Notes: generated by a model from the letters alone, not told the origin. 61,232 bases of DNA from Chloroflexota bacterium (GCA_047516685.1 JAKZUJ010000032.1:1-61232); one strand, 5' to 3'; positions 22,671 to 57,128 are shown, counted from the stretch's first letter. Made by a program: numbers and translations.

Positions 22671-22677
22671 GCCGCGC

Positions 22678-24767: not shown

Positions 24768-24867
24768 GGTTGCCGTCTCTCTAGTTCACGAATCGGGTTA
24801 GCGGCTGCCGATCCGAGACGCCTTGCCTGATCGATTGAGGCGGTCCCTTTGGGCTTCGGGGATCACG

Positions 24868-25866
24868 TTAAGTCTCTGCTGATCCGTTCGATCCGGCCGG
24901 CGAGGGCTCGCCCTTGATCGCTTCAAGGAGTCCCATCATTTGGCCCGTCGCCAGCGCTCGTCCGCGGTGTCCCCAGGGTGTGTCGTCCACCATGTGCGGG
25001 ACATGGTCGTCGATCAGGAATCCGGTGAAGCCTGCCTGGTAAAGAGTTCGCATGGCGGCGGCGATGTCCACGTTGCCCTCGCCGAGGAAGCACTCGTTGA
25101 ACACCGGCACCGTGCCCTGCACGTCTCGGAAGTGCACGTAGAACAGTCGCTTCTCGGCGACAAAGTGCCGCATGGCCGCCAGGACGTCCTCGCCCATCTC
25201 CGACCAGCAGCCCATGCAAAAGTCCAACCCGTTGTTGGAACTGTCGCCGATCCGCATGGCTCGCTTGAAGCCGTCGAACGAGCGCATCAGGCGGGCGACG
25301 CCGCCCAGCGACGGGACGGGCGGGTCATCGGGGTGCAGCGCGAGCCGTACGCCGCTGGCTTCGGCCACCGGCAGCACGGCGTCCATGAACCGCGCGTAGT
25401 TGGCCCACATCTCGTCGGCGCTGAAGGTTCGTCCGTGCGTGGGCGCGGCGCCTGATGCCTGGGCCAGGTCAAACGCTGTGACCCGGGCGCCGCCGCGTGT
25501 CGTTGCGGGCGCCGTACGCCAGACGCCGTTTGGCATCCAGTTGTAGCCGAGGATTGGGATTCCAGCCTCGCCGATGTGCCGGATGGTTGCCTGGTAATTC
25601 GCGATTTGCCGTTCGGCGCCTTCAAGTCCCAGCATTGCCAGGTCATAGAAATGGGTCGGCACGTTTTCGATCGACTCGATCCGGAGACCAGGGGCCTCGA
25701 CGCGCTGGCGCAGGCGTACGAGGTCCTCGACCTCCCAGCGTTCGGCGCCGGGCAGGCGCGGGGTGTTGAGGACGATGCCACTGACACCCATCTGGGCGGA
25801 AAATTGCAGGACTTCCGCCGTGGGTTCGCTGAACTGGCCCGTTGCGATTCGCATTTCCTCGGCCAT
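24868..25866 (-). CDS. uxuA: Mannonate dehydratase
   Basis: ORF 24868..26007, trimmed to ATG 25866 (MAEEMRIATGQF...). LALHPDDPP, GLDFCMGCWSEMG, LFYVHFRDV and GFLIDDHVP are UxuA-like xylose-isomerase-fold motifs. Confidence 0.8.
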   Translation of the reverse strand: MAEEMRIATGQFSEPTAEVLQFSAQMGVSGIVLNTPRLPGAERWEVEDLVRLRQRVEAPGLRIESIENVPTHFYDLAMLGLEGAERQIANYQATIRHIGEAGIPILGYNWMPNGVWRTAPATTRGGARVTAFDLAQASGAAPTHGRTFSADEMWANYARFMDAVLPVAEASGVRLALHPDDPPVPSLGGVARLMRSFDGFKRAMRIGDSSNNGLDFCMGCWSEMGEDVLAAMRHFVAEKRLFYVHFRDVQGTVPVFNECFLGEGNVDIAAAMRTLYQAGFTGFLIDDHVPHMVDDTPWGHRGRALATGQMMGLLEAIKGEPSPAGSNGSAET

Positions 25867-26041
25867 GCCATGCCTCCGACCGACAGCGAGCGTTGCAGGA
25901 CGACGTGCGTCGCGTTGTTCAGCATGCCACGGAGCGGAACGTCGCTGCGCGGGCACAGGCAGCGCTCCCGCTGACGGCTGCGCGGCAAGGTTCGGTGGCG
26001 GCTTCACTTGGCCAACGGCGTGGCAGAATCGCGTGTCCGCA

Positions 26042-28425: not shown

Positions 28426-29331
28426 ATGCGCGTCGCTGTCAGCGGGTCGACCGGGCTGGTTGGCGAGGCGCTCGTCCAAAGCCTGCGTGCGGACGGTCAC
28501 GACGTTGTGCGCCTCGTGCGCCCGGCGACAAGGTCCGCGCAGCAGGGTGATATCCGCTGGGATCCCGAAACCGGCGAGGTGGATCAGTCGGCGCTTGAAG
28601 GCGCCGATGCGGTTGTGCACCTCGCTGGCGAGACGATCAGCGCGCTGCGATGGACGCGCGACAAGCGACGACGAATCCGCGAGAGCCGCGTGCGCGGAAC
28701 GGACACGCTGGCTCGGGCCATCGCGGGCCTGTCCCGAAAGCCCTCGGTCCTGGTGTGCGCCGGCGCGACTGGCTACTACGGTGATCGCGGCGCTGAAGTA
28801 CTGGATGAGCGAAGCCCCCCGGGGCAAGGGTTTCTGGCCAACGTATCCACTGTGTGGGAAGCCGCGACGGCGCCGGCTGCTGACGCCGGGGCCCGGGTTG
28901 GCATCGCGCGCATGGCGCCGGTGATTGATGCTCGATCTCCCGTCGTGACCCGGATGCGGCTGCCGGTCATGCTGGGACTCGGCGGCTGGTTTGGCTCCGG
29001 CCGCCACTACTGGCCCTGGATTGCGCTTGACGACGTGGTGGGCGTCTTTCGTCTGGCGCTTGAGCGGGAGGCGCTTCGTGGGCCGATCGTGGTTGCCGCG
29101 CCCGAGCCCGTAACCAACCGTGAATTCGTGAAGACGATGGGCCGCGTGCTGCGACGTCCCGTGCTCTTTCCGGTGCCCTCGCTGGTCCTGCACGCGGCGC
29201 TTGGCGATTTCGCGCGCGAAGCGCTGCTTTGCAGTCAGCGGGTTGTCCCGCGGAAGCTTTTGGACATCGGCTACGAGTTCCGCCAGCCACGCCTGGAAGG
29301 GGCGATGCATGCGGCGCTCCGATCAGGCTAG
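28426..29331 (+). CDS. YfcH/TIGR01777-type atypical SDR epimerase-family protein (NAD-binding plus DUF1731-like C-terminus)
   Basis: MRVAVSGSTGLVGEAL (GxxGxxG) and a C-terminal ...CSQRVVPRKLLDIGYEFRQP resemble YfcH-family proteins. Confidence 0.8.
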   Translation: MRVAVSGSTGLVGEALVQSLRADGHDVVRLVRPATRSAQQGDIRWDPETGEVDQSALEGADAVVHLAGETISALRWTRDKRRRIRESRVRGTDTLARAIAGLSRKPSVLVCAGATGYYGDRGAEVLDERSPPGQGFLANVSTVWEAATAPAADAGARVGIARMAPVIDARSPVVTRMRLPVMLGLGGWFGSGRHYWPWIALDDVVGVFRLALEREALRGPIVVAAPEPVTNREFVKTMGRVLRRPVLFPVPSLVLHAALGDFAREALLCSQRVVPRKLLDIGYEFRQPRLEGAMHAALRSG

Positions 29332-29375
29332 GTCCATGCACCGCCCATGAGTTGGCGCAGCCGGCCGGAAGTGCC

Positions 29376-31841
29376 GTGATTTACCGGCGACTCCCAAGGG
29401 CGCGGCCGGTGGCTCGAATTTCGGTCGCTGTCCGCAAGTGCCGCGTTGCCGCCGTGAGCCTTGCGGCATTTGCTCTCGTCGCGCTGTCAGCGACGGGTAG
29501 CGCGGCGGGCCCGGCCAGTTTTCCGCTCCATGAGGGCTTCTTCTTTATGCCGACCGGCGGTGGCGGGGGGCTGGGTTACGCAGTCCGGGACGAGCCCGGA
29601 GCCGGATTCTGGACAGCCTTTCAGGACCTCGGCGGCCACGAGGTCCTCGGATATCCCGTGTCTCAGGCATGGCGCGAAGGACCATTCGCATTCCAGGCGT
29701 TTCAGCGGGCGTTGCTCCAGGCTGCTCCTGACGGCCAAGTCCGCCCCGCCAATATTTATGACCTGTTATCCGCAGCCGGGCACGACGACTGGCTGCGGAC
29801 GGTAAAGGGTGTGCCGCCGGTTGCGCTATTGCCTCCCGAGGCCGGTCCGTTGGCTCGCTTGGAGACCATGACGGTCGCTGCGGAAATTCAACGGTATTGG
29901 CGTGACGCCCCGAATGCCCTGAGTCGCTTCGGGTTGCCGCTGGGCTACGCATCAGGTGCGGGCGGCGGGGTGCTCCGCGCACAACGCGCGGTTCTGCGGC
30001 TTCATGATGGCGTCGTGCGACTGGCCCCGGCCGGTGATCACTTCAAACAGGCTGGGATGATCCCGGCGTTACCTGCGACGCCAGTGGCGCCGCCGCGAAT
30101 TCCACGACCGCTGGTAGATGCCCACGACCTGCTGGTGACCAGCGTGGCCTTCGACCCCTCAGGTTCCCAGTTCGCTTCCGGTGGATACGACCGGAAAGTC
30201 GTCATATGGGACCGGGCGACCTTGACGCCCGTCCACGAACTGGACGGCCATTACGACGGGATTTACGAAGTCGCCTATTCGCCTGACGGTTCGGTGCTTG
30301 CCAGTGCTTCCGAGGATGACACGGTGCGACTGTGGGATCCCCGAACAGGTCAGCTCTTGCAGGTGCTCGAAGCTAGTGAACGGTGGTTCACGAGCGTCGC
30401 CTTCAGCCCAGATGGAACAAAGGTGGCGGCCACCACCTACGGCGCGGTGCACGTGTGGGATGTGGCAACGGGGGAACATCTGATCGAGTTCGACGACATC
30501 GACGCCTGGTCAAACGGTGTCGCTTTTACGATGGACGGCAGTCGCCTGATCACGACCGGCTGGGCCGGAGCGGACATCTGGGACCTGACAACGGGCGAGC
30601 GCCTGCTCTCGCTCAGCGATCAGCACACGCGCGCCGTGCTTTCCCTGGCCATCAGTCCCGACGGCACGCGCTTGGTCACCGGCGCTGACGACAACACGGC
30701 CGTGATATGGGACGCGAACGATGGGTCGGCCCTGGCCACGCTCAAGGGCCACAAAGACTCCGTCTGGCAGGTGGCGTTCAGCCCTGACGGGCGCCGGCTG
30801 GCCACGGCATCCGGCGACGAAACCGTGGCTGTGTGGGATGTCGCAACGGCAACGAGGCTGTACAGCCTGACTGGCCATCGGGCGCAAGTACAAGGAGTCA
30901 GCTTCAGCCCGGACGGCGAACTCCTGATTTCGGGGAGCTGGGACGGTGACGTGGGCGTGTGGTCCACGGCGCTGTCGGAATTGGCAGCCGAAGCCTCCCT
31001 GCCTGCGCCGGTCAATGCGGTGGACTTCAGTCCCGACGGCGGGACCGTGGCGGCCGCCTTGAACGACGGCTCGCTTGTGATTGTCGGAACCGAAGGTGAG
31101 ATCCGAGCGTCGATCGCGGCCCATGATCGCCCGGCCCGTGCCGTGTCCTTCTCGCCGGACGGACAGACTCTTGCCTCCGGCGGGGACGACGGCCGAGTGC
31201 GGCTGTGGGACGCGGCGCGCGGCGTCCTGCTGGCTGAAGCGCCGACCGTGCCGGACAGCGTGACCGCTTTGACGTTCGCATCGGACGGTTACCTGCTGGC
31301 CGGTGATGCCCGAGGTGTCGTGCGCAGCCTGGACGCGAGCAGCGGTGCCGAGCGCTGGGCCGCTGTGGCATCTGCCTCCGTCACGGCGCTTGCAACTGAC
31401 GGTAATGACCTCGCGGCGGTTGGCACGTTCCGCGAGATTTTGCTGCTGGATGCCGCGACTGGCGCCGAGCGGCTGCGGATAACGGGCTTTGATGATTGGA
31501 TTCGCACGATCCGCTTCGACCCGGAGGTCGACGAGATGGCTGTCGCGGATGGTCACAAGGTCAAGATTTTGGAGAGCGGCTCCAACAGTCTGCTGCGAGA
31601 GATTGAGCCGGAGGCGGGACTCATCACGGCGATGGCCTATCAGCCACACTGGGGCGACCTGGCCATTGGCGCCTACCAGCGCGCCTACCTGCGCGACCCG
31701 ACAGGCAGCCTGCGCCTTGGCCGCATCATCGATGCGCATATCGACTGGATCCGAGCGCTGGCGTACAGCCCAGACGGTGCGCTGCTTGCCACGGTCGGGG
31801 ACGACCGCGCGCTGCGTTTCTGGGTCACTGGCGCTCCCTAA
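29376..31841 (+). CDS. Secreted WD40-repeat protein (~12-14 blades) with an unassigned ~220-aa N-terminal domain
   Basis: ORF 29229..31841. GTG 29376 is chosen because it sits just downstream of the previous gene's stop (29331) and gives a signal-like N-terminus (VAAVSLAAFALVALSATGSAAG). Many SPDG...D.T..(V/L)WD units are present (e.g. VAYSPDGSVLASASEDDTVRLWD). Confidence 0.8.
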   Translation: MIYRRLPRARPVARISVAVRKCRVAAVSLAAFALVALSATGSAAGPASFPLHEGFFFMPTGGGGGLGYAVRDEPGAGFWTAFQDLGGHEVLGYPVSQAWREGPFAFQAFQRALLQAAPDGQVRPANIYDLLSAAGHDDWLRTVKGVPPVALLPPEAGPLARLETMTVAAEIQRYWRDAPNALSRFGLPLGYASGAGGGVLRAQRAVLRLHDGVVRLAPAGDHFKQAGMIPALPATPVAPPRIPRPLVDAHDLLVTSVAFDPSGSQFASGGYDRKVVIWDRATLTPVHELDGHYDGIYEVAYSPDGSVLASASEDDTVRLWDPRTGQLLQVLEASERWFTSVAFSPDGTKVAATTYGAVHVWDVATGEHLIEFDDIDAWSNGVAFTMDGSRLITTGWAGADIWDLTTGERLLSLSDQHTRAVLSLAISPDGTRLVTGADDNTAVIWDANDGSALATLKGHKDSVWQVAFSPDGRRLATASGDETVAVWDVATATRLYSLTGHRAQVQGVSFSPDGELLISGSWDGDVGVWSTALSELAAEASLPAPVNAVDFSPDGGTVAAALNDGSLVIVGTEGEIRASIAAHDRPARAVSFSPDGQTLASGGDDGRVRLWDAARGVLLAEAPTVPDSVTALTFASDGYLLAGDARGVVRSLDASSGAERWAAVASASVTALATDGNDLAAVGTFREILLLDAATGAERLRITGFDDWIRTIRFDPEVDEMAVADGHKVKILESGSNSLLREIEPEAGLITAMAYQPHWGDLAIGAYQRAYLRDPTGSLRLGRIIDAHIDWIRALAYSPDGALLATVGDDRALRFWVTGAP

Positions 31842-33065: not shown

Positions 33066-33249
33066 CTAGGCGACGTGTGACCTCCCAATTTGCCTGGACC
33101 AAGCCGTCAGTTGCGACGACCAGCGGCGCCAGACTTCGAAAGCAAGGATGGTCGGGGCCCCCACCTCAACCGGCGCAGCACGACAGCGAACAGTTTGAGG
33201 CCGTATGTCCGGGATAGACTGCCGCGGCCGCGCCGGGGGAGCACATCCC

Positions 33250-34479
33250 ATGCAGATCGATCCCGAGCGATTCCTCGACGACGGATTCCTGATTCTGAAG
33301 AACGTCGTTCCGCCCGAACGGCTGGACGGGCTACGCGCCAGCTTCGAAACGCTGGTGGACCGGCAGCAGGCCATCTGGGCGCGTGATCGCGACCACCCAA
33401 GCAGCTTCGCTTACATGGCCAAGCAGCCTCGCCTCGCGTTTCAGACCGTCATAGATGCAGCGACGGCCAACACGGTGGAGTTTTGTCTCCACGAAAACAC
33501 GCTCGGTGTAAGCCGGCAGGCGCTTGCCACACGCGACGTGGGGCTGAAGCAAATGATCCTCCTGTGCAACCCAGAGGCCGACTATGGACCGGATTTGTGG
33601 CATCGCGATGTAAGTCATGGGCCAACAAACAATGCTCCCCTGGCGGGTTTACAGGCGGACATGCTGGCCAACGGTCCGAGCTCCGTGCAGTGGAACATCC
33701 CGCTGTACGACGATGATGTGCTGTGGATCGTCCCCGGCAGTCATCGGCGTCTGAACACGGCGCTGGAGAATCAGGAGCTCTTGAACGACCCCCGCGCACC
33801 GCTTTCGAGCTGTACGCAGGTCAGGCTCAAGGCCGGCGACGGCGTCATGTACATCAACACCATCTTGCATTGGCCCAGCAACTACAGCACCAAGCTGCGG
33901 CGCATCATCCATCTCAGGTACACCTCGTTCGGTGGCCAGCTGTATCCGTACGGCTCCCGCTTCCTTTGGGAGCCAAGTTTCGTCAAGCATCTATCGGCGG
34001 AGGGACGAGCGGTCTTCCAGCGGTTTATCGCACTGGCTGAACACGAGGACGATCGGATCGAAGCGTTCTATCGCGCGATTCTCGCCCAGGATCCAGAAGC
34101 ATTCCGGCAGGCTCTGGCCCTGCTGCATCCAGGCGACACCGGGCGGATGATCTGCCTGGTCCTTTTGTCGAAACTGGCTCACAGGATCGGCGCGCTGAAG
34201 CGCCCGGAGCTGGCCAACCTACCGGAAGGCGAGCGCGCGTCAGCTGTAGGCGAGCAAACCTTCAGCATCAGCAATCTCGAGGCGCTGGCCCGGCGATTCA
34301 CCGTCGCTGAAACGAGGCTGCTTGGACAGCGCTTTGAATCGTTGGACGCCAAGCTCCAAATGGAGGCCGAGCAGTTTGTGCCAAGTCTCTCGAGCAGACC
34401 GACCCGCTACGCGCAGGAGCAAATGCCCGCCGATTTTGGCCTGGACGACTTCATCGCGAGTTGGAGCAATGCCGCCTAG
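33250..34479 (+). CDS. PhyH-family dioxygenase with a ~140-aa helical C-terminal extension
   Basis: ATG 33250 within ORF 33205..34479. Motifs: FLDDGFLILKNVVPPERL, WHRDVSH (HxD) and WIVPGSHRR. Confidence 0.75.
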   Translation: MQIDPERFLDDGFLILKNVVPPERLDGLRASFETLVDRQQAIWARDRDHPSSFAYMAKQPRLAFQTVIDAATANTVEFCLHENTLGVSRQALATRDVGLKQMILLCNPEADYGPDLWHRDVSHGPTNNAPLAGLQADMLANGPSSVQWNIPLYDDDVLWIVPGSHRRLNTALENQELLNDPRAPLSSCTQVRLKAGDGVMYINTILHWPSNYSTKLRRIIHLRYTSFGGQLYPYGSRFLWEPSFVKHLSAEGRAVFQRFIALAEHEDDRIEAFYRAILAQDPEAFRQALALLHPGDTGRMICLVLLSKLAHRIGALKRPELANLPEGERASAVGEQTFSISNLEALARRFTVAETRLLGQRFESLDAKLQMEAEQFVPSLSSRPTRYAQEQMPADFGLDDFIASWSNAA

Positions 34480-34647: not shown

Positions 34648-34724
34648 GTTTGGATGTTGGTCGGGGCGGCCGGATTTGAACCGGCGACCTCCTGACCCCC
34701 AGTCAGGTGCGCTACCAGCCTGCG
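34648..34724 (-). tRNA. tRNA-Pro (anticodon GGG)
   Basis: The reverse complement reads CGGGGCGTGGCGCAGGCTGGTAGCGCACCTGACTGGGGGTCAGGAGGTCGCCGGTTCAAATCCGGCCGCCCCGACCA. This gives a 7-bp acceptor stem, a CCTGA/TCAGG anticodon stem with loop CTGGGGG, a GGTTCAAATCC T-arm and an encoded CCA. Confidence 0.9.
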
Positions 34725-34748
34725 CCACGCCCCGGAGATGCGAGTCTA

Positions 34749-35891: not shown

Positions 35892-36746
35892 ATGCAACGC
35901 CAACTTCGGTCGATCTCTCCCACGCAGCTGCGTGCGTACGACACCTGCCCGCTCCAGTATCGGATGCGCTACGTGGAACGGGTTCCGACCAGGGACTCGC
36001 CGGCATCACTGGTCGGCCAGGCGGTCCACGCCGCCCTTGAAAGTAATTTCCTCCTGAAGCGCCGTAGCGGTCGCGATCTCGAAGGAGAGGACGCCGCCGA
36101 GGTGTTCGATGACGTCTGGGAGGCTCGATTTCCGCCCGGCGCGGCGTCGGGACCATTGGCGGAGGACTTCGATCGCGCCTATGCGTCGGGCCAATCGGTC
36201 TTGGAACTCTACTTGGCCGAGGTGGCGCCCAGTGTCATTCCGCACCTGGTCGAGCACCGCTTCCGATTTGACATTCCCGGTGTCCAGGTCCAGTTGGTCG
36301 GAACCGTTGACCTGATCGACCGGAACGGAGTGGTGATCGATCACAAGACGTCGGTCAAACCCTACCCCGAGGCGTATCCCAGTCGAGACCTGCAATTGCA
36401 GTGCTACGCGATCGGGTACGGGGTCTTCAGAGCCGGGACGCGGATTCGTCCGGGTAGCTTGCCGGCGGCGTTCTTTATCCCCCCGGTTCGGGTCGATGTG
36501 CTGGTACGCGAAGACCCTCCGTATATCCAGCAGCTGACCGGCTCATACGGGCGAGAGGACCTGGAAGGCTTTTCGGCCCGTGTCACCGCGATCGTGGCCG
36601 GAATTGAATCGGCGGCCTTCGATCCGTTTTGGCAGGCGCCGGATCGGATTACCGACCGCCAGGTTTGCCGCCGCTGTCCCTATGGCCGCGTGTGTTCCGC
36701 GTCGCTCGTGCGGGATGAATTACTGGAGGACGGCGGCCAGGATTGA
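35892..36746 (+). CDS. PD-(D/E)XK nuclease, Cas4/RecB-like with a 4-Cys cluster
   Basis: An N-terminal Cys (YDTCPLQY), VDLID...IDHKT (D...DxK), QLQCYAIGY (QxxxY) and C-terminal CRRCPYGRVC match the Cas4/AddB-type iron-sulfur nuclease layout. Confidence 0.7.
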   Translation: MQRQLRSISPTQLRAYDTCPLQYRMRYVERVPTRDSPASLVGQAVHAALESNFLLKRRSGRDLEGEDAAEVFDDVWEARFPPGAASGPLAEDFDRAYASGQSVLELYLAEVAPSVIPHLVEHRFRFDIPGVQVQLVGTVDLIDRNGVVIDHKTSVKPYPEAYPSRDLQLQCYAIGYGVFRAGTRIRPGSLPAAFFIPPVRVDVLVREDPPYIQQLTGSYGREDLEGFSARVTAIVAGIESAAFDPFWQAPDRITDRQVCRRCPYGRVCSASLVRDELLEDGGQD

Positions 36747-36941
36747 AACGAGGAAGAAAACGGCCGACGCGCCGATCGTGAAGTTGAACGTCAGCCGGTC
36801 AATGCCGCGCCGGGCGTGGAAGGAGGAGCTGTCACTGCCGCCCAGGGCCGATCCCATGCCGGTGTTGCGCAACTGAATCAACACCGCGGCGATCACAATG
36901 AGGGACAAGACCAACTGCGCCAACTGTAGAGGGGCGTTCAT
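36720..36941 (-). CDS. secG: Preprotein translocase subunit SecG
   Basis: Internal ATG 36941 of ORF 36720..37103 gives MNAPLQLAQLVLSLIVIAAVLIQLRNTGMGSALGGS...FNFTIGASAVFFLVSILAAVLQ. This is 73 aa with two TM segments and a central G/S loop. Confidence 0.75.
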   Translation of the reverse strand: MNAPLQLAQLVLSLIVIAAVLIQLRNTGMGSALGGSDSSSFHARRGIDRLTFNFTIGASAVFFLVSILAAVLQ

Positions 36942-36945
36942 TCGT

Positions 36946-37977
36946 TCAGGACGTCTCCGTGGATGCCGTCGGAGCGGCGCGCATGGCCATGGTGGCCGCG
37001 ATGTCGATGGCCATCTCCATACTATCCGCCCGCGCAATGCCCTGCCCGGCAATGTCGAAGGCCGTGCCGTGATCCACGCTGGTGCGGATGATCGGCAGGC
37101 CAACGGACACGTTCACTCCGTCGAAAAACCCGGCCACTTTCACTGCTACGTGCCCCTGGTCGTGATACATCGCCACCACGCCGTCGAACACTCCGTTGCG
37201 GGCGCGATTAAATACCGTATCGCCCGGCTCGGGCCCGGTGACGTCGATGCCGTCCGTCCGCGCGTCTTCCAGTGCCGGCCGAATGAACGCGTCGTCTTCG
37301 TGGCCAAAGAGGCCGCCTTCGCCGGCGTGCGGGTTCAATCCGCACACGGCCAAACGCGGCTTCTCAATGGCCATCATCCGCAACGTCTCGTCCAGAAGGC
37401 CGATCACATGGCGCACGTTCTCCCGCGTGACGCGGTTGATGGCCTCGCGCAGGGACACGTGTGTGCTGTTGTGAATAACCCTGAGTCCTGGCGCCACCAG
37501 CAACATGCGGGCGCCGGGCGAGTCGGTCAGGTCGGCCAGCAACTCGGTGTGCCCGGCGTAGTGATAGCCGGCCTCGTTGATCGCGGCCTTGTTGATCGGG
37601 GCGGTGACCATGGCGGCCACGCGGCCATCGAGTGCGAGCTGCGTCGCTGCAATCACCGCCTGCGCCGCGGCGGAGCCGGCCAGCGCACTCACCGATCCCA
37701 CCGGTAGCTCTTCAAGGTCGTGACCCCAGGGGTCATACACCTGGATGTCGTCCGTATCCAGGTCCAGCTTGCTCGGATCGGCGGCGATGACGTTCGTGCC
37801 GACAGCCTCGGCGGCCCGACGCATGGTTGGCAGATCCCCAACCACCAGCGCGTGACAGACGGCACTGACCTTCGGATTCCGTAGGGCCTTGGCCGTGATC
37901 TCGGGTCCGACGCCCGCGGGGTCGCCCATGGTGACGGCAATAAGCGGGCGCTGGTCCGCGGACATCAAGCCCCGCAT
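36946..37977 (-). CDS. PdxA-family NAD-dependent 4-phospho-hydroxyacid dehydrogenase (PdxA2-like by context)
   Basis: Motifs: IAVTMGDPAGVGPEI, GHTELLA, NPHAGEGGLFG and IRTSVDHGTAFDIAG. It is adjacent to a DUF1537 kinase. Confidence 0.85.
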   Translation of the reverse strand: MRGLMSADQRPLIAVTMGDPAGVGPEITAKALRNPKVSAVCHALVVGDLPTMRRAAEAVGTNVIAADPSKLDLDTDDIQVYDPWGHDLEELPVGSVSALAGSAAAQAVIAATQLALDGRVAAMVTAPINKAAINEAGYHYAGHTELLADLTDSPGARMLLVAPGLRVIHNSTHVSLREAINRVTRENVRHVIGLLDETLRMMAIEKPRLAVCGLNPHAGEGGLFGHEDDAFIRPALEDARTDGIDVTGPEPGDTVFNRARNGVFDGVVAMYHDQGHVAVKVAGFFDGVNVSVGLPIIRTSVDHGTAFDIAGQGIARADSMEMAIDIAATMAMRAAPTASTETS

Positions 37978-38023
37978 ACGATTCGCTGCCGCCGGGCCGG
38001 GCGTCGGCTGCGCAGGAGTGAAG

Positions 38024-39256
38024 TCACGCTGCTCGCTCGAGCGGGCGGCACAGGCGCTGAAATGCGGTAATCAAGGCGTCAGGTCCTCCCATCGTTCCGC
38101 CCTTGGTGACGACGGACGCGATCTGGCGCGTTCCGCACAGCGCGAGGCCCGCGGGTACGCCCCACTCAATTTCTTCCAGCACTTCAATGGAGTCCACCTC
38201 AAGGCCGCCAAGACCAGCTCGCGCTGTATCGCCACCGGTAAGGATTAGTCCCAGGGAGTCGAGAGCGTTGGTCAGCGCGACGCACAGTTCACCGACCAAT
38301 GCTAGCTGCCGTCGCCGTTCGGCCGACCGTGGCGCTTCGCCCTCAAGCGTTGTGTCAAAAATCACGGCGCGCTCGGCCGGCCGATCCGAGCGCATCTCGC
38401 GGACCGCGACTTGAATGTCCTCGCTGCTTCTGATGCGTAGGAGCCGCGCGCTTCCCGTGTTCAACGCGCGTTCGATCTGCGCTTGCGTGTGCGCGCTCGG
38501 TGTGCCGACAACCGCGGCGACATGGGCCGACCGCGCCAAGCCGTGGGGTGGAGATACATACGGATCCGGTCGGGCCAGATGCTCGGCGAGACCGGCGGAA
38601 CCCGCGCAGATACGCCCGCTGGCCGTCGCACGCAGCGCCCGCGCGATGGCGCATAAGTCGTCGTTGGTTTCAACGTCCGGCGCCAGCACGTCAATACCGG
38701 ATTGGTCCGCACTTGTCAGCGCCGCGACCAGGACGTCGTGACCGCCGCGCACGACGTCAAGCGGTACGGATTCAACCTTCAGCTGGGCGCTGTCCAGCAA
38801 GAGCGTTGGGATGTGGGACTCACTGACTGGCGAAAGCACATCGCGGCCTGGCGCTGTTTGAGCTATCGGGACGCCGTCAAGCCTATGGATGCCGCCAATT
38901 GTGGTACGACCGCCTGCTGGAAAGGCCGGGGCGAACACGATTGGATCGGCGCCTGCGGCGTGACGCAACACTCGCAACTCCGCGCCGACGTTTCCGCGCA
39001 GCAGAGAATCGGTCTTCTTGTACAGCCGCCGTTGCGTTCCAGGCCGCAGGGCGCGGAACGCGGCCTGAACTTGTGCGGCGGCCGTCTCGGCCGATGTGTG
39101 CCTGGTCTCGGTGCTCATGGCAACGACCCGGCCGTCCGCAGGCCAGACGCCGGATCGGGTCGAAACGAAGGCCTGCTGTCCGGCCTTACGGAACTGGAGT
39201 GCGGTGTCTAGCGCGCCGGTCAGATCGTCCGCGATGACGGCCCAGCGCTCCGCCAC
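38024..39256 (-). CDS. Four-carbon acid-sugar kinase family protein (DUF1537)
   Basis: A GTG start abuts the upstream stop. WAVIADDLTGALDTALQFRKAG is the characteristic N-terminal motif. The C-terminal nucleotide-binding half carries GGDTA. Confidence 0.8.
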   Translation of the reverse strand: MAERWAVIADDLTGALDTALQFRKAGQQAFVSTRSGVWPADGRVVAMSTETRHTSAETAAAQVQAAFRALRPGTQRRLYKKTDSLLRGNVGAELRVLRHAAGADPIVFAPAFPAGGRTTIGGIHRLDGVPIAQTAPGRDVLSPVSESHIPTLLLDSAQLKVESVPLDVVRGGHDVLVAALTSADQSGIDVLAPDVETNDDLCAIARALRATASGRICAGSAGLAEHLARPDPYVSPPHGLARSAHVAAVVGTPSAHTQAQIERALNTGSARLLRIRSSEDIQVAVREMRSDRPAERAVIFDTTLEGEAPRSAERRRQLALVGELCVALTNALDSLGLILTGGDTARAGLGGLEVDSIEVLEEIEWGVPAGLALCGTRQIASVVTKGGTMGGPDALITAFQRLCRPLERAA

Positions 39257-40531
39257 TCAGGCCACCAGAGGCAGCGTGTCCGGTGCGTGCGTCAGAATCC
39301 CAACCCGAGGCGCTGCGCCATTTTTTCGTGCGACGACCGCAAGCGCGGTTTCCACGTCCGGCGCCGTATCGAAGCCAAGCGCCGCCGCTTCGTGCGACGC
39401 AATGCCATCGGACACCAGCACGACGCTCGCGTAATCGCGAACTCTGGCCCAAGCCACGGCAAGCGAGGCGGCCACACGGTCGCTGATCTCGTTGCGCTGG
39501 TAGCGGCGCAGCAGCGCCTCGGCCGGCTGCGCGGTGTATTCCAGGATTTCCGGATGGGTGACAGCCACGCCTTCCGGACACGGCGTGACCACGATGATGG
39601 TTCCACCGGGCCGCACCATGAGCATTGCCGGATACAGGCTCTTGTGGGCCTGCCAGAACTCGATATCGCATGGATGTGACCCGGCCACCACCGCGTCCAG
39701 GCCGGCGGGGGTGCGGACGCCGTAGATGCGCCGGGCGTCGGCCACGGCCCGCCGATAGGTGGGACGGGTTGCGCCGAAGTGGGCGGTAACGATCTGGCCG
39801 TCGGCGTTGAGTGTCACGTTCAAGACGTGCGTCATGCCGCAGCGTTCCGCGATGAGCTCCATTTCGGCTCGTACGGGGGTATCGATCCGGCCCAGCAAGG
39901 GCGTGCGTGCTCGGGCGCTGAACATGTGTGTCGCGGCTGTCGTGGCTGCGCCCGAGACGCCAGGTTGCACGATCTTGGCCCCAGCCGAGAATCCCGCGAT
40001 GTGGTGTGGCACCACGGCGCCTGTCCCGATGACGATGTCGGCCTCAAACAGATGCTCGTTCACCTCGATTGGCGTGCCACTTGGCGTCACCCCCAGGTTG
40101 CGTAAGGGCGCCGTGCGGTGGTCGTGCTGCATTACCTCAACCCGCGCCAGCACCTCGGCCCCGACTTTGTGCCGGATCTCGCTATCGGTCATTGGCCGGT
40201 GGGTGCCCAGCGCGATCATCACGAGGATGTCGTCGGCCTCGAGTCCAGCCGCCTCCAGGTCGTCAAGGATCGGCGGCAGCAGCAGGTCGGCCGGCGTTTC
40301 GCGCGTGATGTCGTCGATGAGGATTAACGCGCTGGCTTTGCCGCGAGCCGCTTCGCGCAGCGGTATCGACTCGATCGGGTTGTCCAGCGTCGCCCGCACG
40401 AGCGCCTGGGGATCGTGCGCTGGCCGCGTCGGAAGCGGCGCGTATATGCCAGTGATCTCGACGCCCGCGCTGCGAACGGCCAGCGTGCCGTCGCCGTATG
40501 GCAGTTCGATTGTGCGGGTCATGCTGGCCAA
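39257..40531 (-). CDS. LarA-like nickel-pincer-cofactor-dependent 2-hydroxyacid racemase/epimerase (DUF2088)
   Basis: LIDDITRETP (DxTR), ALGTHRPM (His), VVPHHIAGFSAGAKIV (His...GFSxGxK tether Lys) and ATHMF correspond to the LarA catalytic and cofactor residues as I recall them. The start is TTG 40531 or ATG 40522. Confidence 0.75.
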   Translation of the reverse strand: MASMTRTIELPYGDGTLAVRSAGVEITGIYAPLPTRPAHDPQALVRATLDNPIESIPLREAARGKASALILIDDITRETPADLLLPPILDDLEAAGLEADDILVMIALGTHRPMTDSEIRHKVGAEVLARVEVMQHDHRTAPLRNLGVTPSGTPIEVNEHLFEADIVIGTGAVVPHHIAGFSAGAKIVQPGVSGAATTAATHMFSARARTPLLGRIDTPVRAEMELIAERCGMTHVLNVTLNADGQIVTAHFGATRPTYRRAVADARRIYGVRTPAGLDAVVAGSHPCDIEFWQAHKSLYPAMLMVRPGGTIIVVTPCPEGVAVTHPEILEYTAQPAEALLRRYQRNEISDRVAASLAVAWARVRDYASVVLVSDGIASHEAAALGFDTAPDVETALAVVARKNGAAPRVGILTHAPDTLPLVA

Positions 40532-40543
40532 GGTTGCGGTGCG

Positions 40544-41368
40544 CTAGGCGGCGACCACCGGGTTGCTGAGCACGCCCACGCCCTCGACCTCAATTTCAAC
40601 TACGTCGCCTGGCGAGAGCGCGGAGGGTCCGGCGGGCGTACCGGTGTAGATGCAGTCGCCGGGGTTCAGCGTGATGCCCTGCGAGGCATAGGCAACCAGG
40701 GCCGCCACGCTAAAGAGCAGGTCGGAGGTGTTGCTGTGCTGCAACTCCTGACCGTTCAGCCGGGCCATGATATCGAGGTTCGTGGGATCGAGATCGGTGG
40801 CAATACACGGCCCGAGTGGCGCAAACGTGTCCATTCCCTTGCCCATCAGCAGAACGCCGGTGGCCATTTCCTTGAACTGCAGGCCCCGGGCGCTGACGTC
40901 GTTGCCGCAGCTATAGCCCAGCACGTAGTCCAGCGCGTCGTCCTCGGACACCTGTCGACAGCGTTTCCCGATCACCGCCACCAGCTCGGCTTCGTAGTGC
41001 ACTTCGCCAAACGGGTCCTGCTGAAGGTCTGGGTCGGTCATCGACTGCGTGAACTTCGCCGGATCCGGCAGCACGATGGGTGCGCCGGGACCGGTGATGG
41101 CCGAGGTGGGCTTCATGAAGAGCATTGGAAACTTTGGAATGGCGTCCTCGTCGTGGCCTTCCAGGATGTGGGCCAGATAGTTGGCGCCCACTGCTATGAC
41201 GTTGCCCGGATCGACCGGCGCCAGCAGCTCCAGGTCGTTCACGGCGCCAACCTGCGTGCCGACCTCGTACTCGCCAAACATGTCACCGGTGATCGCGTAC
41301 ACCGCGCCCGTTTCCTTGAGTGACCCGAGGGCTGGTCCGGATGACGTGGCGTAGCGAACGAATTTCAT
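40544..41368 (-). CDS. Fumarylacetoacetate hydrolase (FAH) family protein
   Basis: ORF 40544..41554, trimmed to ATG 41368 (MKFVRYATSSGPALG...). Motifs: FMKPTSAITGPGAPIVLP, YEAELVAVIGK, GYSCGNDVSAR and GDCIYTGTPAG. Confidence 0.85.
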   Translation of the reverse strand: MKFVRYATSSGPALGSLKETGAVYAITGDMFGEYEVGTQVGAVNDLELLAPVDPGNVIAVGANYLAHILEGHDEDAIPKFPMLFMKPTSAITGPGAPIVLPDPAKFTQSMTDPDLQQDPFGEVHYEAELVAVIGKRCRQVSEDDALDYVLGYSCGNDVSARGLQFKEMATGVLLMGKGMDTFAPLGPCIATDLDPTNLDIMARLNGQELQHSNTSDLLFSVAALVAYASQGITLNPGDCIYTGTPAGPSALSPGDVVEIEVEGVGVLSNPVVAA

Positions 41369-49624: not shown

Positions 49625-50349
49625 CTGCCCGGAACGGCCGGCACGACGATCTGGGGCCGCGACGGCAGGTCCTCGGGACGCAGCGCAATTTCGGTTTCAG
49701 CGAGTCGCCGCACCTCACGGCCAACCAGGAATCCAGTCTCCGCCAGCGGCGAGGTTGGATGTCCGGGCAGTCGCGATGTCCGGTAGTGGATGGGAATCGT
49801 GAGCGCTGGTCGAATCTCGTCCATCGTTGCGGCCGCGGTCTCGCCGTCAATCGTGTAGAAGCCGCCGACCGGAATGAGCAATACCTGATGTCCGCGACAT
49901 TGGGCCAGCAGGTTGGTGTCCAGCCGGTGTCCCAGGTCGCCCAGATGCAGGATGCGAAGCCCACCGACTTCAACCGACATCAGCGCGGTGCGCCCGCGTA
50001 ATTCGCCGTGGGCCTCATCGTGGAAAGCTCCGCCGATCATCGTCAGGGTCACGTCCCCTAACGTCACGGTTCCCGGATGCCAGCCGCTCGCCGAGATTCC
50101 GCGGACGACCTTGGGGGCGCCCGATGCCAGCGCCACATTGTTGTGGTCGGCATGCTCGTGGCTGACCCCGATCAGATCGATCGGCGGAAGTTCGGGCACG
50201 GGATAGCCGAGTTCGGCGTGGAACGGGTCCAGCAGCAGCTGCACGCCAGCGGGGCTGCTCAGCAAGAAGGTTGCGTGGCCCAACCAGCGCAATCGGGTGG
50301 GCTCAGCGTCGGTCGCGGCATCGGGTTGGGCTGGAAGTTCAGATCTCAC
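49621..50349 (-). CDS. MBL-fold metallo-hydrolase
   Basis: LRWLGHATFLL and VSHEHADHNNV (HxHxDH). The start is set at GTG 50349 because the longer ORF would run far into recR. Confidence 0.75.
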   Translation of the reverse strand: MRSELPAQPDAATDAEPTRLRWLGHATFLLSSPAGVQLLLDPFHAELGYPVPELPPIDLIGVSHEHADHNNVALASGAPKVVRGISASGWHPGTVTLGDVTLTMIGGAFHDEAHGELRGRTALMSVEVGGLRILHLGDLGHRLDTNLLAQCRGHQVLLIPVGGFYTIDGETAAATMDEIRPALTIPIHYRTSRLPGHPTSPLAETGFLVGREVRRLAETEIALRPEDLPSRPQIVVPAVPGS

Positions 50350-50941
50350 GACGTCCCTCCAGCGCCTGGGCGATTGTTGCCGCGTCAACGTACTCGATGT
50401 CCCCGCCGGTCGCGAGCCCTCGCGCCAGGCGGGTGACCCGGATGTCCAGATCGCTGAGTCGCTGGCGGATTTCCATGGCCGTGGCATCGCCTTCTATGGT
50501 CGCGTTGGTCGCCACCACAATCTCGCCGATGCCCTCGCGTCCGGCGCGACGGACCAGCAGGTCGATCGTGAGATCGTCCGGTCCTACGCCCTCCAGCGGT
50601 GAAATGGCGCCGTGCAGCACGTGATAGAGGCCGCTAAACCCTCCCGAGTTCTCAACGGCCACCAGGTCGAGCGGATCCTCGACCACGCAGATCAACGCGC
50701 TGTTCCGCGTGGGATCCTGGCAGATCGCGCACGGGTCTCCATCAGCAAAGTTCCGGCAACGCGTGCAGGTTTGAATGCCCTCGTGCAGCGACGAGATTAC
50801 CGTTCCGAGCGTGCGTGCCTGGCTTGACGACCCGCGCAGCAGAAAGAACGCCAATCGCTGCGCGGTCTTTGTGCCGATCGTCGGCAGCCGTGCCAGCTCC
50901 TCAATCAGCCGCGTGACCGCGCGCGGGAGCGGGTCAGCCAC
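50339..50941 (-). CDS. recR: Recombination protein RecR
   Basis: LIEELARLPTIGTKTAQRLAF (HhH), a CTRC...CAIC zinc finger and a Toprim region (VVEDPLDLVAVE). Confidence 0.9.
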   Translation of the reverse strand: MADPLPRAVTRLIEELARLPTIGTKTAQRLAFFLLRGSSSQARTLGTVISSLHEGIQTCTRCRNFADGDPCAICQDPTRNSALICVVEDPLDLVAVENSGGFSGLYHVLHGAISPLEGVGPDDLTIDLLVRRAGREGIGEIVVATNATIEGDATAMEIRQRLSDLDIRVTRLARGLATGGDIEYVDAATIAQALEGRREI

Positions 50942-50944
50942 GCG

Positions 50945-51241
50945 CTAGCCGAGGCCCGGAATATTCAGCCCGCCGGTCAACCCGCCCAGTTTGCTCTTTG
51001 CCAGCGCCTGCGACTGCTCAATGGCGTCGTTCACTGCCACCATGAGCATGTCGGCCAGCAATTCGGCATCCTCGGGATCAACGGCTGACGGGTCGATGTC
51101 GATCGAGACGATCCGCTGGTCGCCGGTGGCAACCACCGTAATTGCGCCACCGCCCGCCGATGCCTCAACGGTCATTTCCTGTAATTCGTTCTGAACCTTT
51201 TCCATCTGCTTCTGAAACTGCCGGAACATTTTCATCGACAT
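50945..51241 (-). CDS. ybaB: Nucleoid-associated protein YbaB/EbfC
   Basis: MFRQFQKQMEKVQNELQEMTVEASAGGGAITVVATGDQRIVSIDIDP... is the classic YbaB sequence. It sits between dnaX and recR. Confidence 0.9.
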   Translation of the reverse strand: MSMKMFRQFQKQMEKVQNELQEMTVEASAGGGAITVVATGDQRIVSIDIDPSAVDPEDAELLADMLMVAVNDAIEQSQALAKSKLGGLTGGLNIPGLG

Positions 51242-51244
51242 GGG

Positions 51245-52924
51245 TCAATCTCCCTGGTTGGAACTGCCGGTGAGGGGCGTGGCCCCATACTCGCGCATCG
51301 CCACGCGTACCACCGGATCATCGTCGACCGCTGTCCTGGCGGAACGGGGTCTGCCTGGCGCCGAAACGTTACGTTGTTCATTTCGAACCTGGATCGGACG
51401 ACCAAGCACGTGCGAAAGCGCCCGGGCTACCTGGCGCAGCGCGTCGGGCTGCTGGACACGGTCGAACAGGAACCTGCTGCGGTACCCCAAAGTCACGGTG
51501 CCGTCGGCGAAGTCCACGACCTCGGCTTCGCCCGCGTAGGGAGCGATTTCGCGCGATTCCTGGCGGATCTCCGACACCCACTCGTCCTTGCGAGCTGCAA
51601 TTATGGCTGCGGAGAGTTCGCCGTCGCTGGTGGCGGCGTGCCGCGTGGGGGCGACCGGAGGCGGCTGAGGCGGCACTTCGGTTGGGACGGCCGGCGAATC
51701 AGCCACGCGCGCCGGCGGTGATGTAGGACGGACGACTTCGCGGGCCTGGCTGGTAGCCGGTGACGCTGTCGGCGCCTCCAAGGGATCAGTGATGGCGAGC
51801 ACGGCTCGCGCGAACGCCAGCTCGAGTTCCAGCGTGGCGTCCACCCCGGTTCGCGACGGCGGATCTGGCTCCGCGAATACTTCCAGCGTGCGCACGATGT
51901 CGCGCAGACTCGAGCCCGCCGTGCGCTGACTGAGTTCGAAGGCCTCGTCCTCGGTCAGGTGACCCACGGCGCTTGTGTCGGGACTGGTCTTCATAATCAA
52001 TATGTCGCGAAGGATGTCGATGATCTGCTGGCGCAGGGTGTTGGGACTGGTGCCGTCGTCAATGGCCTTTCCAATCGCCTGCAAACCAGCGGCGGCGTCG
52101 CCGTCGATCAGCCGCCCCAGCAGTTGAATCACGGCGTCCCGCCCAGTCAATCCCAGCATGGAATTCACGGCGTCGGCCGTGACGTTGTTGTCGCTGTACG
52201 CCAGCGCCTGGTCCAGCAGGCTCACGGCGTCGCGCGCGCTGCCGCCGGCATTGCGAGCCAGCGTGTGCAATGCGGCTTCGTCGATCTGGGCGCCCTCGGC
52301 TTCAGCGATGGCGCGGAGTTGCGTCGTGAGTTCCAGCACCCCTATGCGGCGAAACGTCAGGTGCTGGGTACGCGACCGGATTGTGGCCGGCACACGGTGC
52401 GGCTCGGTTGTCGCCAGCACAAACAGCGTCTGCGGCGGCGGTTCCTCCAGCGTCTTCAGTAGCGCGTCCTTCGCGGGCGGCGAAAGCTGGTGGACCTCGT
52501 CGATGATGTACACGCGGTAGCGCCCTGCCCCCGGAGCGAACTGGGTGAGCTCCCGAATCTCGCGAATGTCGTCAATGCCGCGGTGGGAAGCCGCGTCCAT
52601 TTCGATCAGGTCCAGGAACGATCCGTTGGCGATCGCCTTGCAGTGATCGCATCTGCCGCAGGTTTCCGCCTGGATGCCCTCCAGGCAGTTCACGGCCTTG
52701 GCGAGCAGGCGGGCCGCGGTGGTCTTGCCCGTGCCACGTTCGCCCGAGAACAGGTAGGCATGGCTGAGGCGGTTGTGGACCAGTGCATTCTGGAGCGTGC
52801 GTACCACGTGCTCCTGGCCAACCAACTCGTCGAACCTCTGCGGTCGGTAGCGGTTGTAGAGAGCCTGAAACGACGGCGGACGCGACGCGGCCACGGGAGC
52901 CTCCCGGCGTGACGTAAGCGCCAT
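51245..52924 (-). CDS. dnaX: DNA polymerase III subunit gamma/tau
   Basis: YNRYRPQRFDELVGQEHV, GERGTGKTT (Walker A), a CxxC...CxxC zinc module and YIIDEVHQLS. Confidence 0.9.
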   Translation of the reverse strand: MALTSRREAPVAASRPPSFQALYNRYRPQRFDELVGQEHVVRTLQNALVHNRLSHAYLFSGERGTGKTTAARLLAKAVNCLEGIQAETCGRCDHCKAIANGSFLDLIEMDAASHRGIDDIREIRELTQFAPGAGRYRVYIIDEVHQLSPPAKDALLKTLEEPPPQTLFVLATTEPHRVPATIRSRTQHLTFRRIGVLELTTQLRAIAEAEGAQIDEAALHTLARNAGGSARDAVSLLDQALAYSDNNVTADAVNSMLGLTGRDAVIQLLGRLIDGDAAAGLQAIGKAIDDGTSPNTLRQQIIDILRDILIMKTSPDTSAVGHLTEDEAFELSQRTAGSSLRDIVRTLEVFAEPDPPSRTGVDATLELELAFARAVLAITDPLEAPTASPATSQAREVVRPTSPPARVADSPAVPTEVPPQPPPVAPTRHAATSDGELSAAIIAARKDEWVSEIRQESREIAPYAGEAEVVDFADGTVTLGYRSRFLFDRVQQPDALRQVARALSHVLGRPIQVRNEQRNVSAPGRPRSARTAVDDDPVVRVAMREYGATPLTGSSNQGD

Positions 52925-52934
52925 GATAGGGATT

Positions 52935-53207
52935 GAGGCCGCGCACCCGCCGTCGAACCGACCAGCAACGCCTTACCGTCGGGCCGCGGCTCCGGCCAGG
53001 TGGACTCGCGGCGCCCGAAGGGGGCTTCGTACCGCTGCTTCCTCTCGGACCTGACGGGGTTGGAAGGCCTTCGTCGCACGAGGCCCGGCGTTCAATACCG
53101 AGCGTCGGCGGCAGACACATTGCGGACGACCCTCAGGCGGGAATTCAGCCCGCTATAGCGGATTGCGGCTGAAGGGCACCGCTAACTCCCCACCTAGCGC
53201 GGCCTCC
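52935..53207 (-). ncRNA. ffs: Signal recognition particle RNA, long (Bacillus-type, Alu-domain-containing) form
   Basis: The minus strand carries the domain-IV core CCCGUCAGGUCCGAGAGGAAGCAGC (plus-strand 53033-53058). It also carries a 5' Alu-like segment, GGUGGGGAGUUAGCGGUGCCCUUCAGCCGCAAUCCGCUAUAGCGGGCUGAAU, closely resembling B. subtilis scRNA as I recall it. The terminal GGCCGCGC/GCGCGGCC segments can pair. It lies immediately upstream of dnaX, as in Firmicutes. Ends are approximate. Confidence 0.8.
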
Positions 53208-57119: not shown

Positions 57120-57128
57120 GACGGCACC

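Follow-up and report, generated by a model that had tools for sequence, protein, structure and literature searches.

The 61,232-nucleotide stretch of Chloroflexota DNA analysed here (GCA_047516685.1, JAKZUJ010000032.1:1-61232; hereafter the window) carries, side by side on one strand, a homologue of the lactate racemase LarA (LarAH), a DUF1537 kinase and a PdxA-family protein. We hold with about even confidence that these three genes are the core of a module that consumes both C2 epimers of a tetronic acid. LarAH would be a nickel-pincer nucleotide (NPN) enzyme that inverts C2 of a four-carbon 2,3,4-trihydroxy acid, with transient hydride transfer to the cofactor and a bound 2-oxo intermediate. 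It would interconvert D-erythronate and D-threonate, or their 4-phosphates. The DtnK/DenK-like kinase would phosphorylate O4, and the PdxA2-like enzyme would oxidise C3 and decarboxylate the product to dihydroxyacetone phosphate (DHAP) and CO2. C2 is the sole centre at which D-erythronate (2R,3R) and D-threonate (2S,3R) differ, and the PdxA substrate has 4-phospho-D-threonate as its hydroxy analogue. Such an epimerase would let one stereospecific kinase/dehydrogenase pair use both C2 epimers, and the route would bypass the dehydrogenase/isomerase routes through 2-oxo- and 3-oxo-tetronate. We infer D-erythronate/D-threonate (or the 4-phosphates) as the most economical substrate pair, and likewise the order of epimerisation and phosphorylation, the direction of flux and the presence of the cofactor in this organism.

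Two pathways, DtnK/PdxA2 for D-threonate and DenK/PdxA2 for D-erythronate, were reportedly laid out by Zhang et al. in PNAS in 2016. DtnK and DenK phosphorylate D-threonate and D-erythronate, and PdxA2 turns the 4-phosphates into DHAP and CO2 (K22129, K22024; PMC13185595 Table 1; PMC10971088). Kinase/PdxA2 pairs for both acids are thus already known (PMC13185595 Table 1; PMC10971088). They share with the window a DUF1537 kinase acting at O4, followed by NAD-dependent oxidative decarboxylation to DHAP and CO2 by a PdxA-family enzyme. As described, however, neither pathway includes an epimerase, and the kinase/dehydrogenase pair of each accepts a single C2 epimer, whereas the window operon adds a LarA-type isomerase. 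LarA enzymes invert C2 of 2-hydroxy acids via proton-coupled hydride transfer to the NPN cofactor (PMC7583248; PMC11770544), and some homologues (LarAH42, LarAH43, LarAH51, LarAH52 and others) promiscuously epimerise 4-deoxy-threonate/erythronate (PMC11770544). The published tetronate routes (four-step, three-step and Ltn3D) include no epimerase (PMC12994016). A literature search returned no description of a LarA/DUF2088-DUF1537-PdxA module, the neighbourhood networks of Zhang et al. 2016 lying outside that search, and Table S1 of Desguin 2020 has no COG3395 or COG1995 entry.

The coupling of the three genes is seen most clearly in other genomes. A LarAH profile made from 32 aligned family members was scanned against GTDB species representatives. 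The scan gave 394 loci with a relative, and the best 80 of the 394 were examined with 10-kb flanks, in which neighbours were mapped by tblastn with the window proteins. The loci were split into 43 syntenic and 45 non-syntenic ones. Close relatives of LarAH (84-90% identity) come from metagenome-assembled genomes of Chloroflexota, several of them complete chromosomes of 3.4-3.8 Mb and many with sponge-derived isolate names; OZ253587.1 (LarAH identity 90%), OZ240251.1, OZ244802.1 and OY764080.1 are complete genomes among the close relatives. The syntenic set represents one Chloroflexota lineage with the order DUF58 - TgpA - ... - hpt - hydrolase - FAH - LarAH - kinase - PdxA - secG - PD-(D/E)XK, and LarAH and the kinase are adjacent in all 43 loci wherever the flank covers the junction. 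In 20 of the 45 non-syntenic loci, DUF1537 and PdxA both lie within 7 kb of LarAH. The order there is most commonly PdxA-LarAH-kinase; kinase-PdxA-LarAH occurs in Bacillota, and LarAH-kinase-PdxA is also found. The hosts are Anaerolineae, Chloroflexia, Thermomicrobiaceae, Sphaerobacteraceae, Thermoflexales, Acidobacteriota, Neomoorella carbonis, two other Bacillota and Syntrophaceae, which places the trio in at least four phyla (Chloroflexota, Acidobacteriota, Bacillota and Syntrophaceae). Because trio-bearing LarAHs fall on every major branch of a neighbour-joining tree, the association is old or repeatedly maintained, not a single inherited accident. No other gene family occurs in more than 6 of the 45 non-syntenic loci. 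These three families lie together in many unrelated genomes. Their adjacency is far beyond chance, and the functional coupling of LarAH, kinase and PdxA is well supported. An earlier reading of the window, made from the sequence alone, had proposed that the LarA homologue epimerises a tetronate and feeds it to the kinase and PdxA2. The coupling that it proposed stands, with the trio recurring in shuffled order in at least four phyla; its substrates we can only infer.

The remaining neighbours vary with the host. Pfam-confirmed extra neighbours, each in 2-6 loci, are IlvD/Edd, TRAP DctPQM, GntP, a sigma54 PrpR-type regulator, PanB-like, PanE-like, enolase-superfamily and fucose-isomerase-like proteins; FTHFS, dnaN, CN-hydrolase, UPF0047 and DUF386 are each found in one or a few loci. 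The Bacillota trios are flanked by TRAP transporters, GntP permeases and sigma54 PrpR-type regulators, and with these transporters and regulator they have a catabolic look. Most Chloroflexota trios stand alone or among housekeeping genes, and the window module lies between hpt and secG with no adjacent transporter or regulator. For this reason we speculate that in the sponge-symbiont lineage the module may act constitutively on endogenous or host-derived tetronate. PMC13185595 (Table 1) counts pdxA2 (K22024) and dtnK/denK (K22129) among the leading genes over-represented in prokaryotes whose optimal growth temperature is high, in keeping with the trio's many thermophilic hosts (Moorella, Thermomicrobia, Thermoflexales).

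LarAH has the Lar_N and LarA_C domains of the LarA superfamily and, as modelled, its fold. The AF2 model (pLDDT 89.6) superposes on LarA structures with TM 0.86-0.89 (9EID 0.89, 5HUQ 0.88). The LarA motifs picked out in the sequence-only reading (DxTR, GTHR, H...GFSxGxK and a downstream His) are all readable, as DDITR, LGTHRP, PHHIAGFSAGAK and ATH. For the individual residues, 92 family sequences including the window protein (46-100% identity) were aligned, with Lactobacillus plantarum LarA as the numbering reference. D72, R75, H108, H174, K184, H200, Q295 and K298 are invariant (92/92). H108 and H174 are the catalytic His pair, K184 tethers the cofactor, H200 is the nickel ligand, and D72/R75 and Q295/K298 are further cofactor-binding residues. 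All are kept in LarAH, including the tethering Lys and the catalytic His residues, whose loss had been named beforehand as fatal to the proposal. Since cofactor-binding and catalytic residues are invariant across this range of identity, the family appears to be under purifying selection.

The substrate pocket is of a different make. F175 is replaced by His, Y294 by Trp and V297 by His in 90 of the 92 sequences each, F176 by Ile and T353 by Asp in 88 each, W358 by Ser, Ala or Gly in 90 (Ser in the window protein) and T359 by Leu in 80. The polar signature H-I / W-Q-x-H-K / D..[SAG]-L is specific to the LarAH family and matches none of the four published LarA-group signatures, those of lactate, malate and 2-hydroxyglutarate racemases and of gluconate epimerases (PMC11770544). 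Its His/His/Asp pocket would suit hydroxyls, though a phosphate might also fit. In some genomes, two LarA homologues lie within 10 kb of each other (loci L078, L083 and L084), and the second copies in L083 and L084 are an outgroup to the LarAH family, with Y/V/M at positions 175/176 and G at 297.

LarAH reaches no NCBIfam equivalog cut-off, and its identity to any characterised member of the LarA superfamily is at most 32%. The lactate racemase LarA model (NF033504) gives 235 bits against 460, and positions 175/176/358 hold H, I and S instead of F, F and W; this identity was rejected. The gluconate 2-epimerase GntE was rejected as well, with H, I, S and L at 175/176/358/359 instead of E, V, A and H. 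A putative hexonate-epimerase model gives 71 bits against a cut-off of 500. The best NCBIfam model is LarAH6 malate racemase with 295 bits against 500, and a second malate-racemase model gives 268 against 462 (NF052593/NF052595). It could accordingly be asked whether LarAH is a stand-alone racemase of malate, tartrate or another 2-hydroxy acid, its place beside the kinase and PdxA being meaningless. The Mar2 malate racemase (LarAH6, PDB 6D6Z/7S91), which acts on a C4 hydroxy acid, is 30% identical to LarAH and its second-best solved structure; half of the LarAH family has no kinase or PdxA neighbour; and the malate-racemase group of Desguin is partly associated with FAH-family genes (COG0179, 12%). 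Yet both malate models stay far under their cut-offs, and the Lys of Mar2 that binds the second carboxylate is absent from LarAH together with the preceding H/Q: the malate signature H/Q + K at 358/359 (PMC11770544) is replaced by Ser/Ala/Gly + Leu, with Ser and Leu in the window protein. The recurrence of the trio in four phyla with differing gene orders also argues against a meaningless position. Malate specificity was rejected on scores and pocket residues, and we regard a stand-alone racemase as very improbable. By sequence, LarAH is a member of the Moth_0729 sub-branch of 'Group 23, unknown function' of Desguin 2020: its EFWQAHK motif and its signature, D R H H H I K H V W Q H K, are those of Moth_0729 and Kcr_1492 (Dataset S2). 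It thus lies outside all three classes of characterised enzyme, lactate, malate and gluconate, against which its placement had been called for. Desguin 2020 records no genomic context for Group 23 (Table S1).

The two partners of LarAH point to a four-carbon acid sugar. The kinase has both domains of the DUF1537 four-carbon acid-sugar kinases (SBD_N and NBD_C), its translation shows the motifs ADDLTGA, GGDT and TKGG, and its relatives in the PDB are 4XFR, 4XFM, 3DQQ, 5DMH and 1YZY. It scores 173 bits with the D-threonate kinase model (NF047819), against a cut-off of 450, and 106 bits with the 3-oxo-tetronate kinase (OtnK) model, also below cut-off. Six other kinases adjoining LarA-type genes (from other Chloroflexota classes, Bacillota and the metagenome locus L095) score 199-354 bits with the D-threonate kinase model, which is again their best and again below cut-off; the OtnK and oxo-isoapionate kinase (OiaK) models score lower for them. 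The tetronate kinase named in the sequence-only reading therefore holds up in the ranking of models, in that the D-threonate model stands above the OtnK and OiaK models rather than the kinase falling in a non-tetronate subfamily, but the curated cut-off is not reached. The DtnK and PdxA equivalog cut-offs rest on proteobacterial enzymes. We class the window kinase as DtnK/DenK-like from these sequence scores.

The PdxA protein carries the motifs GHTE, NPHAGE and DHGTAFD. Its closest solved structures are PdxA2 (2HI1, 292 bits) and a 'D-threonate 4-phosphate dehydrogenase' (6E85, 291 bits); E. coli PdxA (1PS6) gives 186 bits. The PdxA2-type assignment made earlier is borne out by this difference of about 106 bits. 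The enterobacterial D-threonate-4-phosphate dehydrogenase equivalog (NF002891) is not passed, with 324 bits against 583. The protein is closer to PdxA2 than to true PdxA and is predicted to be a 4-phospho-D-threonate (or 4-phospho-D-erythronate) 3-dehydrogenase yielding DHAP and CO2. A different possibility is that it is the genuine 4-hydroxythreonine-4-phosphate dehydrogenase of the pyridoxal 5'-phosphate pathway, that the DUF1537 protein is a 4-hydroxythreonine kinase salvaging a toxic intermediate, and that LarAH is incidental. The generic pdxA model TIGR00557 is indeed passed (357 bits against 290), and DUF1537 members can phosphorylate 4-hydroxythreonine just as PdxA2 can catalyse the PdxA reaction (PMC9997740; PMC7954711). 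However, PdxA2 paralogues are catabolic, hard to annotate and known to be mis-called as PdxA (PMC9997740), and the structural scores favour PdxA2. LarA chemistry acts on 2-hydroxy and not on 2-amino acids, the conserved LarAH partner would be left unexplained, and Pfam scans of the window's open reading frames (ORFs) gave no pdxJ. We give the vitamin pathway very little probability.

The neighbourhood was found again from the kinase side. A profile of 14 aligned LarAH-adjacent kinases was used to scan JGI metagenomes, and the 80 best DUF1537 relatives were examined. PdxA lies directly beside DUF1537 in 66 of the 80, and most of the remainder are short of flank. A LarA-superfamily gene is present within the DNA covered in 14 of the 80 loci: seven of the window family (42-57% identity), five encoding a 'group 22' NPN isomerase and two other LarA/malate-racemase-like genes. 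About one in six kinase-PdxA2 pairs thus has a LarA-type gene as an optional extra, which is how an enzyme that broadens the intake of a self-sufficient pair should be distributed. Two loci bring the parts together in another way. The metagenome contig Ga0213823_1000694 (L095:1-9755) has the order GntP - larE - larB - larC - sigma54 PrpR-type regulator - DUF1537 - PdxA - group-22 NPN isomerase, the isomerase scoring 548 bits with NF052515, so that nickel-pincer cofactor synthesis stands in one cluster with the kinase and PdxA. In the metagenome-assembled genome of Firmicutes bacterium UBA2598 (Bacillota; L075:5604-17558), a sigma54 regulator, DUF1537, PdxA, a window-type LarAH, PanB-like and PanE-like proteins and TRAP DctPQM are accompanied by a group-22 LarA-like gene on the opposite strand, and two LarA clades thus share one putative catabolic island with one kinase-PdxA pair.

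Several observations weigh against the tetronate module. PdxA is missing from the block in six syntenic loci of a sub-lineage at 47% identity, which retains LarAH-kinase-SecG. About half of the LarAH family has no kinase or PdxA within 10 kb, and has IlvD/Edd dehydratases, GntP permeases or unrelated genes instead. From the kinase side, 18 of the 22 loci with generous flanks have no LarA-type gene and only four have one; most kinase-PdxA2 pairs do without the epimerase, and the pair can therefore dispense with it. The lone Group 23 protein assayed, from Isosphaera pallida and of another sub-branch, was inactive on seven substrates, and the epimerase role of LarAH stays putative. Finally, no substrate-specific NCBIfam cut-off is reached by either the kinase or PdxA, which leaves room for C5/C6 or branched acid sugars.

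This last point bears on the rival that the architecture is the same and the acid sugar another one: a C5/C6 aldonate, a branched apionate-type acid, or 2,4-dihydroxybutyrate/pantoate-like acids. DUF1537 kinases are known for oxo-isoapionate (the NCBIfam OiaK model) and for C5/C6 3-oxo acids (PMC12994016), and in some loci the LarAH family also adjoins IlvD/Edd dehydratases and fucose-isomerase-like, PanB-like or PanE-like genes. On the other hand, the D-threonate kinase model scores two- to three-fold above the OtnK and OiaK models in 6/6 kinases, the window PdxA is closest to structures named D-threonate-4-phosphate dehydrogenase, and pantoate has no 3-OH, which established PdxA chemistry requires. 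Another acid sugar is in our view rather unlikely, though worth keeping in mind.

The cofactor genes also speak against the tetronate module. L. plantarum LarB, LarC1, LarC2 and LarE, taken from a plasmid, served as queries. A Pfam scan of about 50 ORFs and tblastn with these queries found no larB, larC or larE in the window, in agreement with what the sequence-only reading had stated, and a motif scan for the PP-loop and the LarC N-terminus matched only MnmA. Over the window and 90 loci (1.69 Mb), tblastn found nothing either, the larE-larB-larC genes occurring only in the metagenome locus L095, which is not part of that set; their place there beside a kinase-PdxA-LarA-type cluster is indirect support for a cofactor supply. 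LarAH might accordingly be non-functional here, or have a different chemistry, in an organism unable to make the nickel-pincer cofactor. However, LarA homologues mostly have no lar biosynthesis genes beside them: the association is 28-64% where given, and none is given for Group 23 (Desguin 2020 Table S1). Moorella, a host of the LarAH family, has a characterised LarC (PMC13510736). The invariant catalytic and cofactor-binding residues imply purifying selection, and LarAH is transcribed in situ, as described below. A LarAH that is non-functional or differs in chemistry for want of the cofactor is thus quite improbable, and the NPN-dependent epimerase remains the preferred role for LarAH. A MIP-family aquaglyceroporin is also encoded in the window, about 14 kb from LarAH. 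It is 34% identical to LarD, which serves as the lactate channel in the L. plantarum lar operon, and is probably a generic GlpF.

Five co-directional genes form the block at 36720-41368, all on the minus strand in the order FAH, LarAH, kinase, PdxA and SecG (Table 1). The probable true start of LarAH, judged from the start position in relatives, is the ATG at 40522, which gives a protein of 421 amino acids. The gaps are 12-21 nucleotides between FAH and LarAH, 0 between LarAH and the kinase, whose GTG start directly abuts the LarAH TGA stop, 46 between the kinase and PdxA, and 4 between PdxA and secG, just as the gene order and spacing had been described at the outset. Upstream of FAH, the same strand continues with an alpha/beta hydrolase and an hpt-like phosphoribosyltransferase. 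At its 3' end, secG overlaps a convergent PD-(D/E)XK nuclease gene by 27 nucleotides (36720-36746), an overlap also called in relatives.

Table 1. Features of the window, with positions counted from its first nucleotide.
Feature	Position	Strand	Description
FAH-family protein	40544-41368	-	HpcE/oxaloacetate-decarboxylase-like; 274 amino acids; PF01557 215 bits and PF10370 (Rv2993c-like N domain)
LarA homologue (LarAH)	39257-40531	-	Lar_N PF09861 179 bits and LarA_C PF21113 31 bits (Pfam)
DUF1537 kinase	38024-39256	-	DtnK/DenK-like; 410 amino acids; SBD_N 176 bits and NBD_C 61 bits
PdxA-family protein	36946-37977	-	PdxA2-type; 343 amino acids; PF04166 340 bits
secG	36720-36941	-	housekeeping; PF03840 and TIGR00810
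PD-(D/E)XK nuclease	35892-36746	+	convergent with secG
tRNA-Pro	34658-34734	-	anticodon GGG
WD40 protein	29229-31841	+	beta-propeller repeat protein of 870 amino acids
MIP-family aquaglyceroporin	22678-23367	-	probably a generic GlpF
Catabolic-type paralogues	10314-26007, 33205-34479		three PhyH dioxygenases, two enolase-superfamily (MR/MLE) proteins, UxuA-like dehydratase, several GFO/IDH/MocA oxidoreductases, class IV aminotransferase
Long ORFs with no Pfam match at E <= 1e-6	7157-10426, 13361-17057, 18263-20638		416, 600, 284, 682, 249, 255, 121 and 395 amino acids
SRP (signal recognition particle) RNA	52939-53202	-	Rfam 148 bits
dnaX	51245-52924	-	
Small ORF	50945-51241	-	
recR	50339-50941	-	
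Branched-chain amino-acid ABC transporter genes	56001-60000		G+C falls from about 0.65 to 0.60

The block is expressed in situ in sponge. Sponge metagenomes and metatranscriptomes are among the sequencing runs that contain the window's DNA, and in four metatranscriptomes assembled contigs cover every gene and cross every junction of the block. One contig (40116-42896) runs from hpt through the hydrolase and FAH into the start of LarAH. The LarAH/kinase junction is crossed by contig 39196-39971 and two others, the kinase/PdxA junction by contig 37797-38335 and two others, and the PdxA/secG junction by contig 36617-37183. These contigs are consistent with a polycistronic transcript; they are unstranded, and DNA carry-over is possible. 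A promoter/terminator scan of 35.8-44.2 kb gave counts at or below shuffle expectation, and an Rfam scan gave no riboswitch near the operon.

FAH, whose PDB relatives include HpcE/HpaG and 4DBF, is probably a co-transcribed upstream neighbour of LarAH. It had been listed with the other three genes in the sequence-only reading, which called its role unclear, and this grouping is corrected here. Outside the syntenic Chloroflexota lineage neither FAH nor secG is found with the trio (0/45 non-syntenic loci). Within that lineage, three genes separate FAH from LarAH in L002/L040, and in L007/L047 FAH is found 5.3 kb downstream. FAH was thus ruled out as a pathway member, being restricted to the syntenic lineage and displaced in two sub-lineages. 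FAH and SecG are lineage-specific syntenic neighbours and not parts of the module. In the UBA6622 sub-lineage (L002/L003/L004/L040:6672-9577), the genes inserted between FAH and LarAH encode DUF5069, an HpcH/HpaI aldolase and an EcKL-family kinase.

The rest of the window is of mixed character. The SRP RNA, dnaX, the small ORF and recR (50339-53202) make up a classical housekeeping string. The catabolic-type enzymes are paralogous, and such a repertoire is typical of SAR202-like Chloroflexota. The long ORFs without a Pfam match have good coding statistics. The WD40 protein occupies the same position in relatives (818 amino acids in L001), and the fall in G+C runs across the branched-chain amino-acid transporter genes.

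The proposed module can be set beside three further known systems. The LarA C2-epimerases (GntE D-gluconate/D-mannonate 2-epimerases and the promiscuous LarAHs) have the fold, catalytic His pair, Lys tether and His nickel ligand of LarAH, and the reaction type would also be shared, as C2 inversion of a polyhydroxy acid. Their pockets differ: LarAH has H-I / W-Q-x-H-K / D..[SAG]-L where GntE has E, V, A and H and lactate racemases have F, F, W and T/E/Q (PMC11770544), and no kinase/PdxA2 context has been reported for the characterised C2-epimerases (Desguin Table S1). The routes through LtnD/DenD, OtnI, OtnK and OtnC, through 2OtnK/2OtnC and through Ltn3D (PMC12994016) have the tetronate source, the DHAP product and the DUF1537 kinase in common with the window module. 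They release free 2-oxo- or 3-oxo-tetronate from NAD-dependent dehydrogenases and use a class II aldolase-type decarboxylase, whereas the window module would keep the 2-oxo species bound to NPN and use PdxA2. The third system is the group-22 NPN-dependent isomerases (NF052515; Desguin Group 22, unknown function). They likewise lie beside DUF1537-PdxA pairs, in six loci, one with larE-larB-larC and one (L075) with LarAH too, but they form a different and very distant LarA clade, which the window family detects by tblastn only at E > 1e-8, if at all. We advance, more tentatively than the module itself and as a doubtful extension of it, that at least these two unrelated clades (Moth_0729-type Group 23 and Group 22) were independently recruited to DtnK/DenK-PdxA2 pairs, and that tetronic acids are thereby served by a widespread, hitherto unrecognised nickel-pincer 'epimerase shunt'. 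This shunt might, in sponge-symbiont Chloroflexota, be hard-wired between housekeeping genes (hpt ... secG) and constitutive, for example recycling erythronate or 4-phosphoerythronate that comes from erythrose-4-phosphate oxidation or from the host.

In the search for LarA substrates, the field has so far had to rely mostly on testing panels of candidate acids, guided chiefly by genomic context. If the proposed module is real, two LarA-superfamily clades labelled 'unknown function' would receive their first substrate and physiological role. Four-carbon acid sugars, for which three bacterial pathways are known, would gain a further route that runs through an epimerase. The module would explain the recurrent mis-annotation of such neighbourhoods as 'lactate racemase' - 'PdxA' - 'four-carbon acid sugar kinase'. 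It would also extend nickel-pincer chemistry to aerobic sponge symbionts, soil Chloroflexota and Acidobacteriota, and would bear on their predicted nickel dependence.

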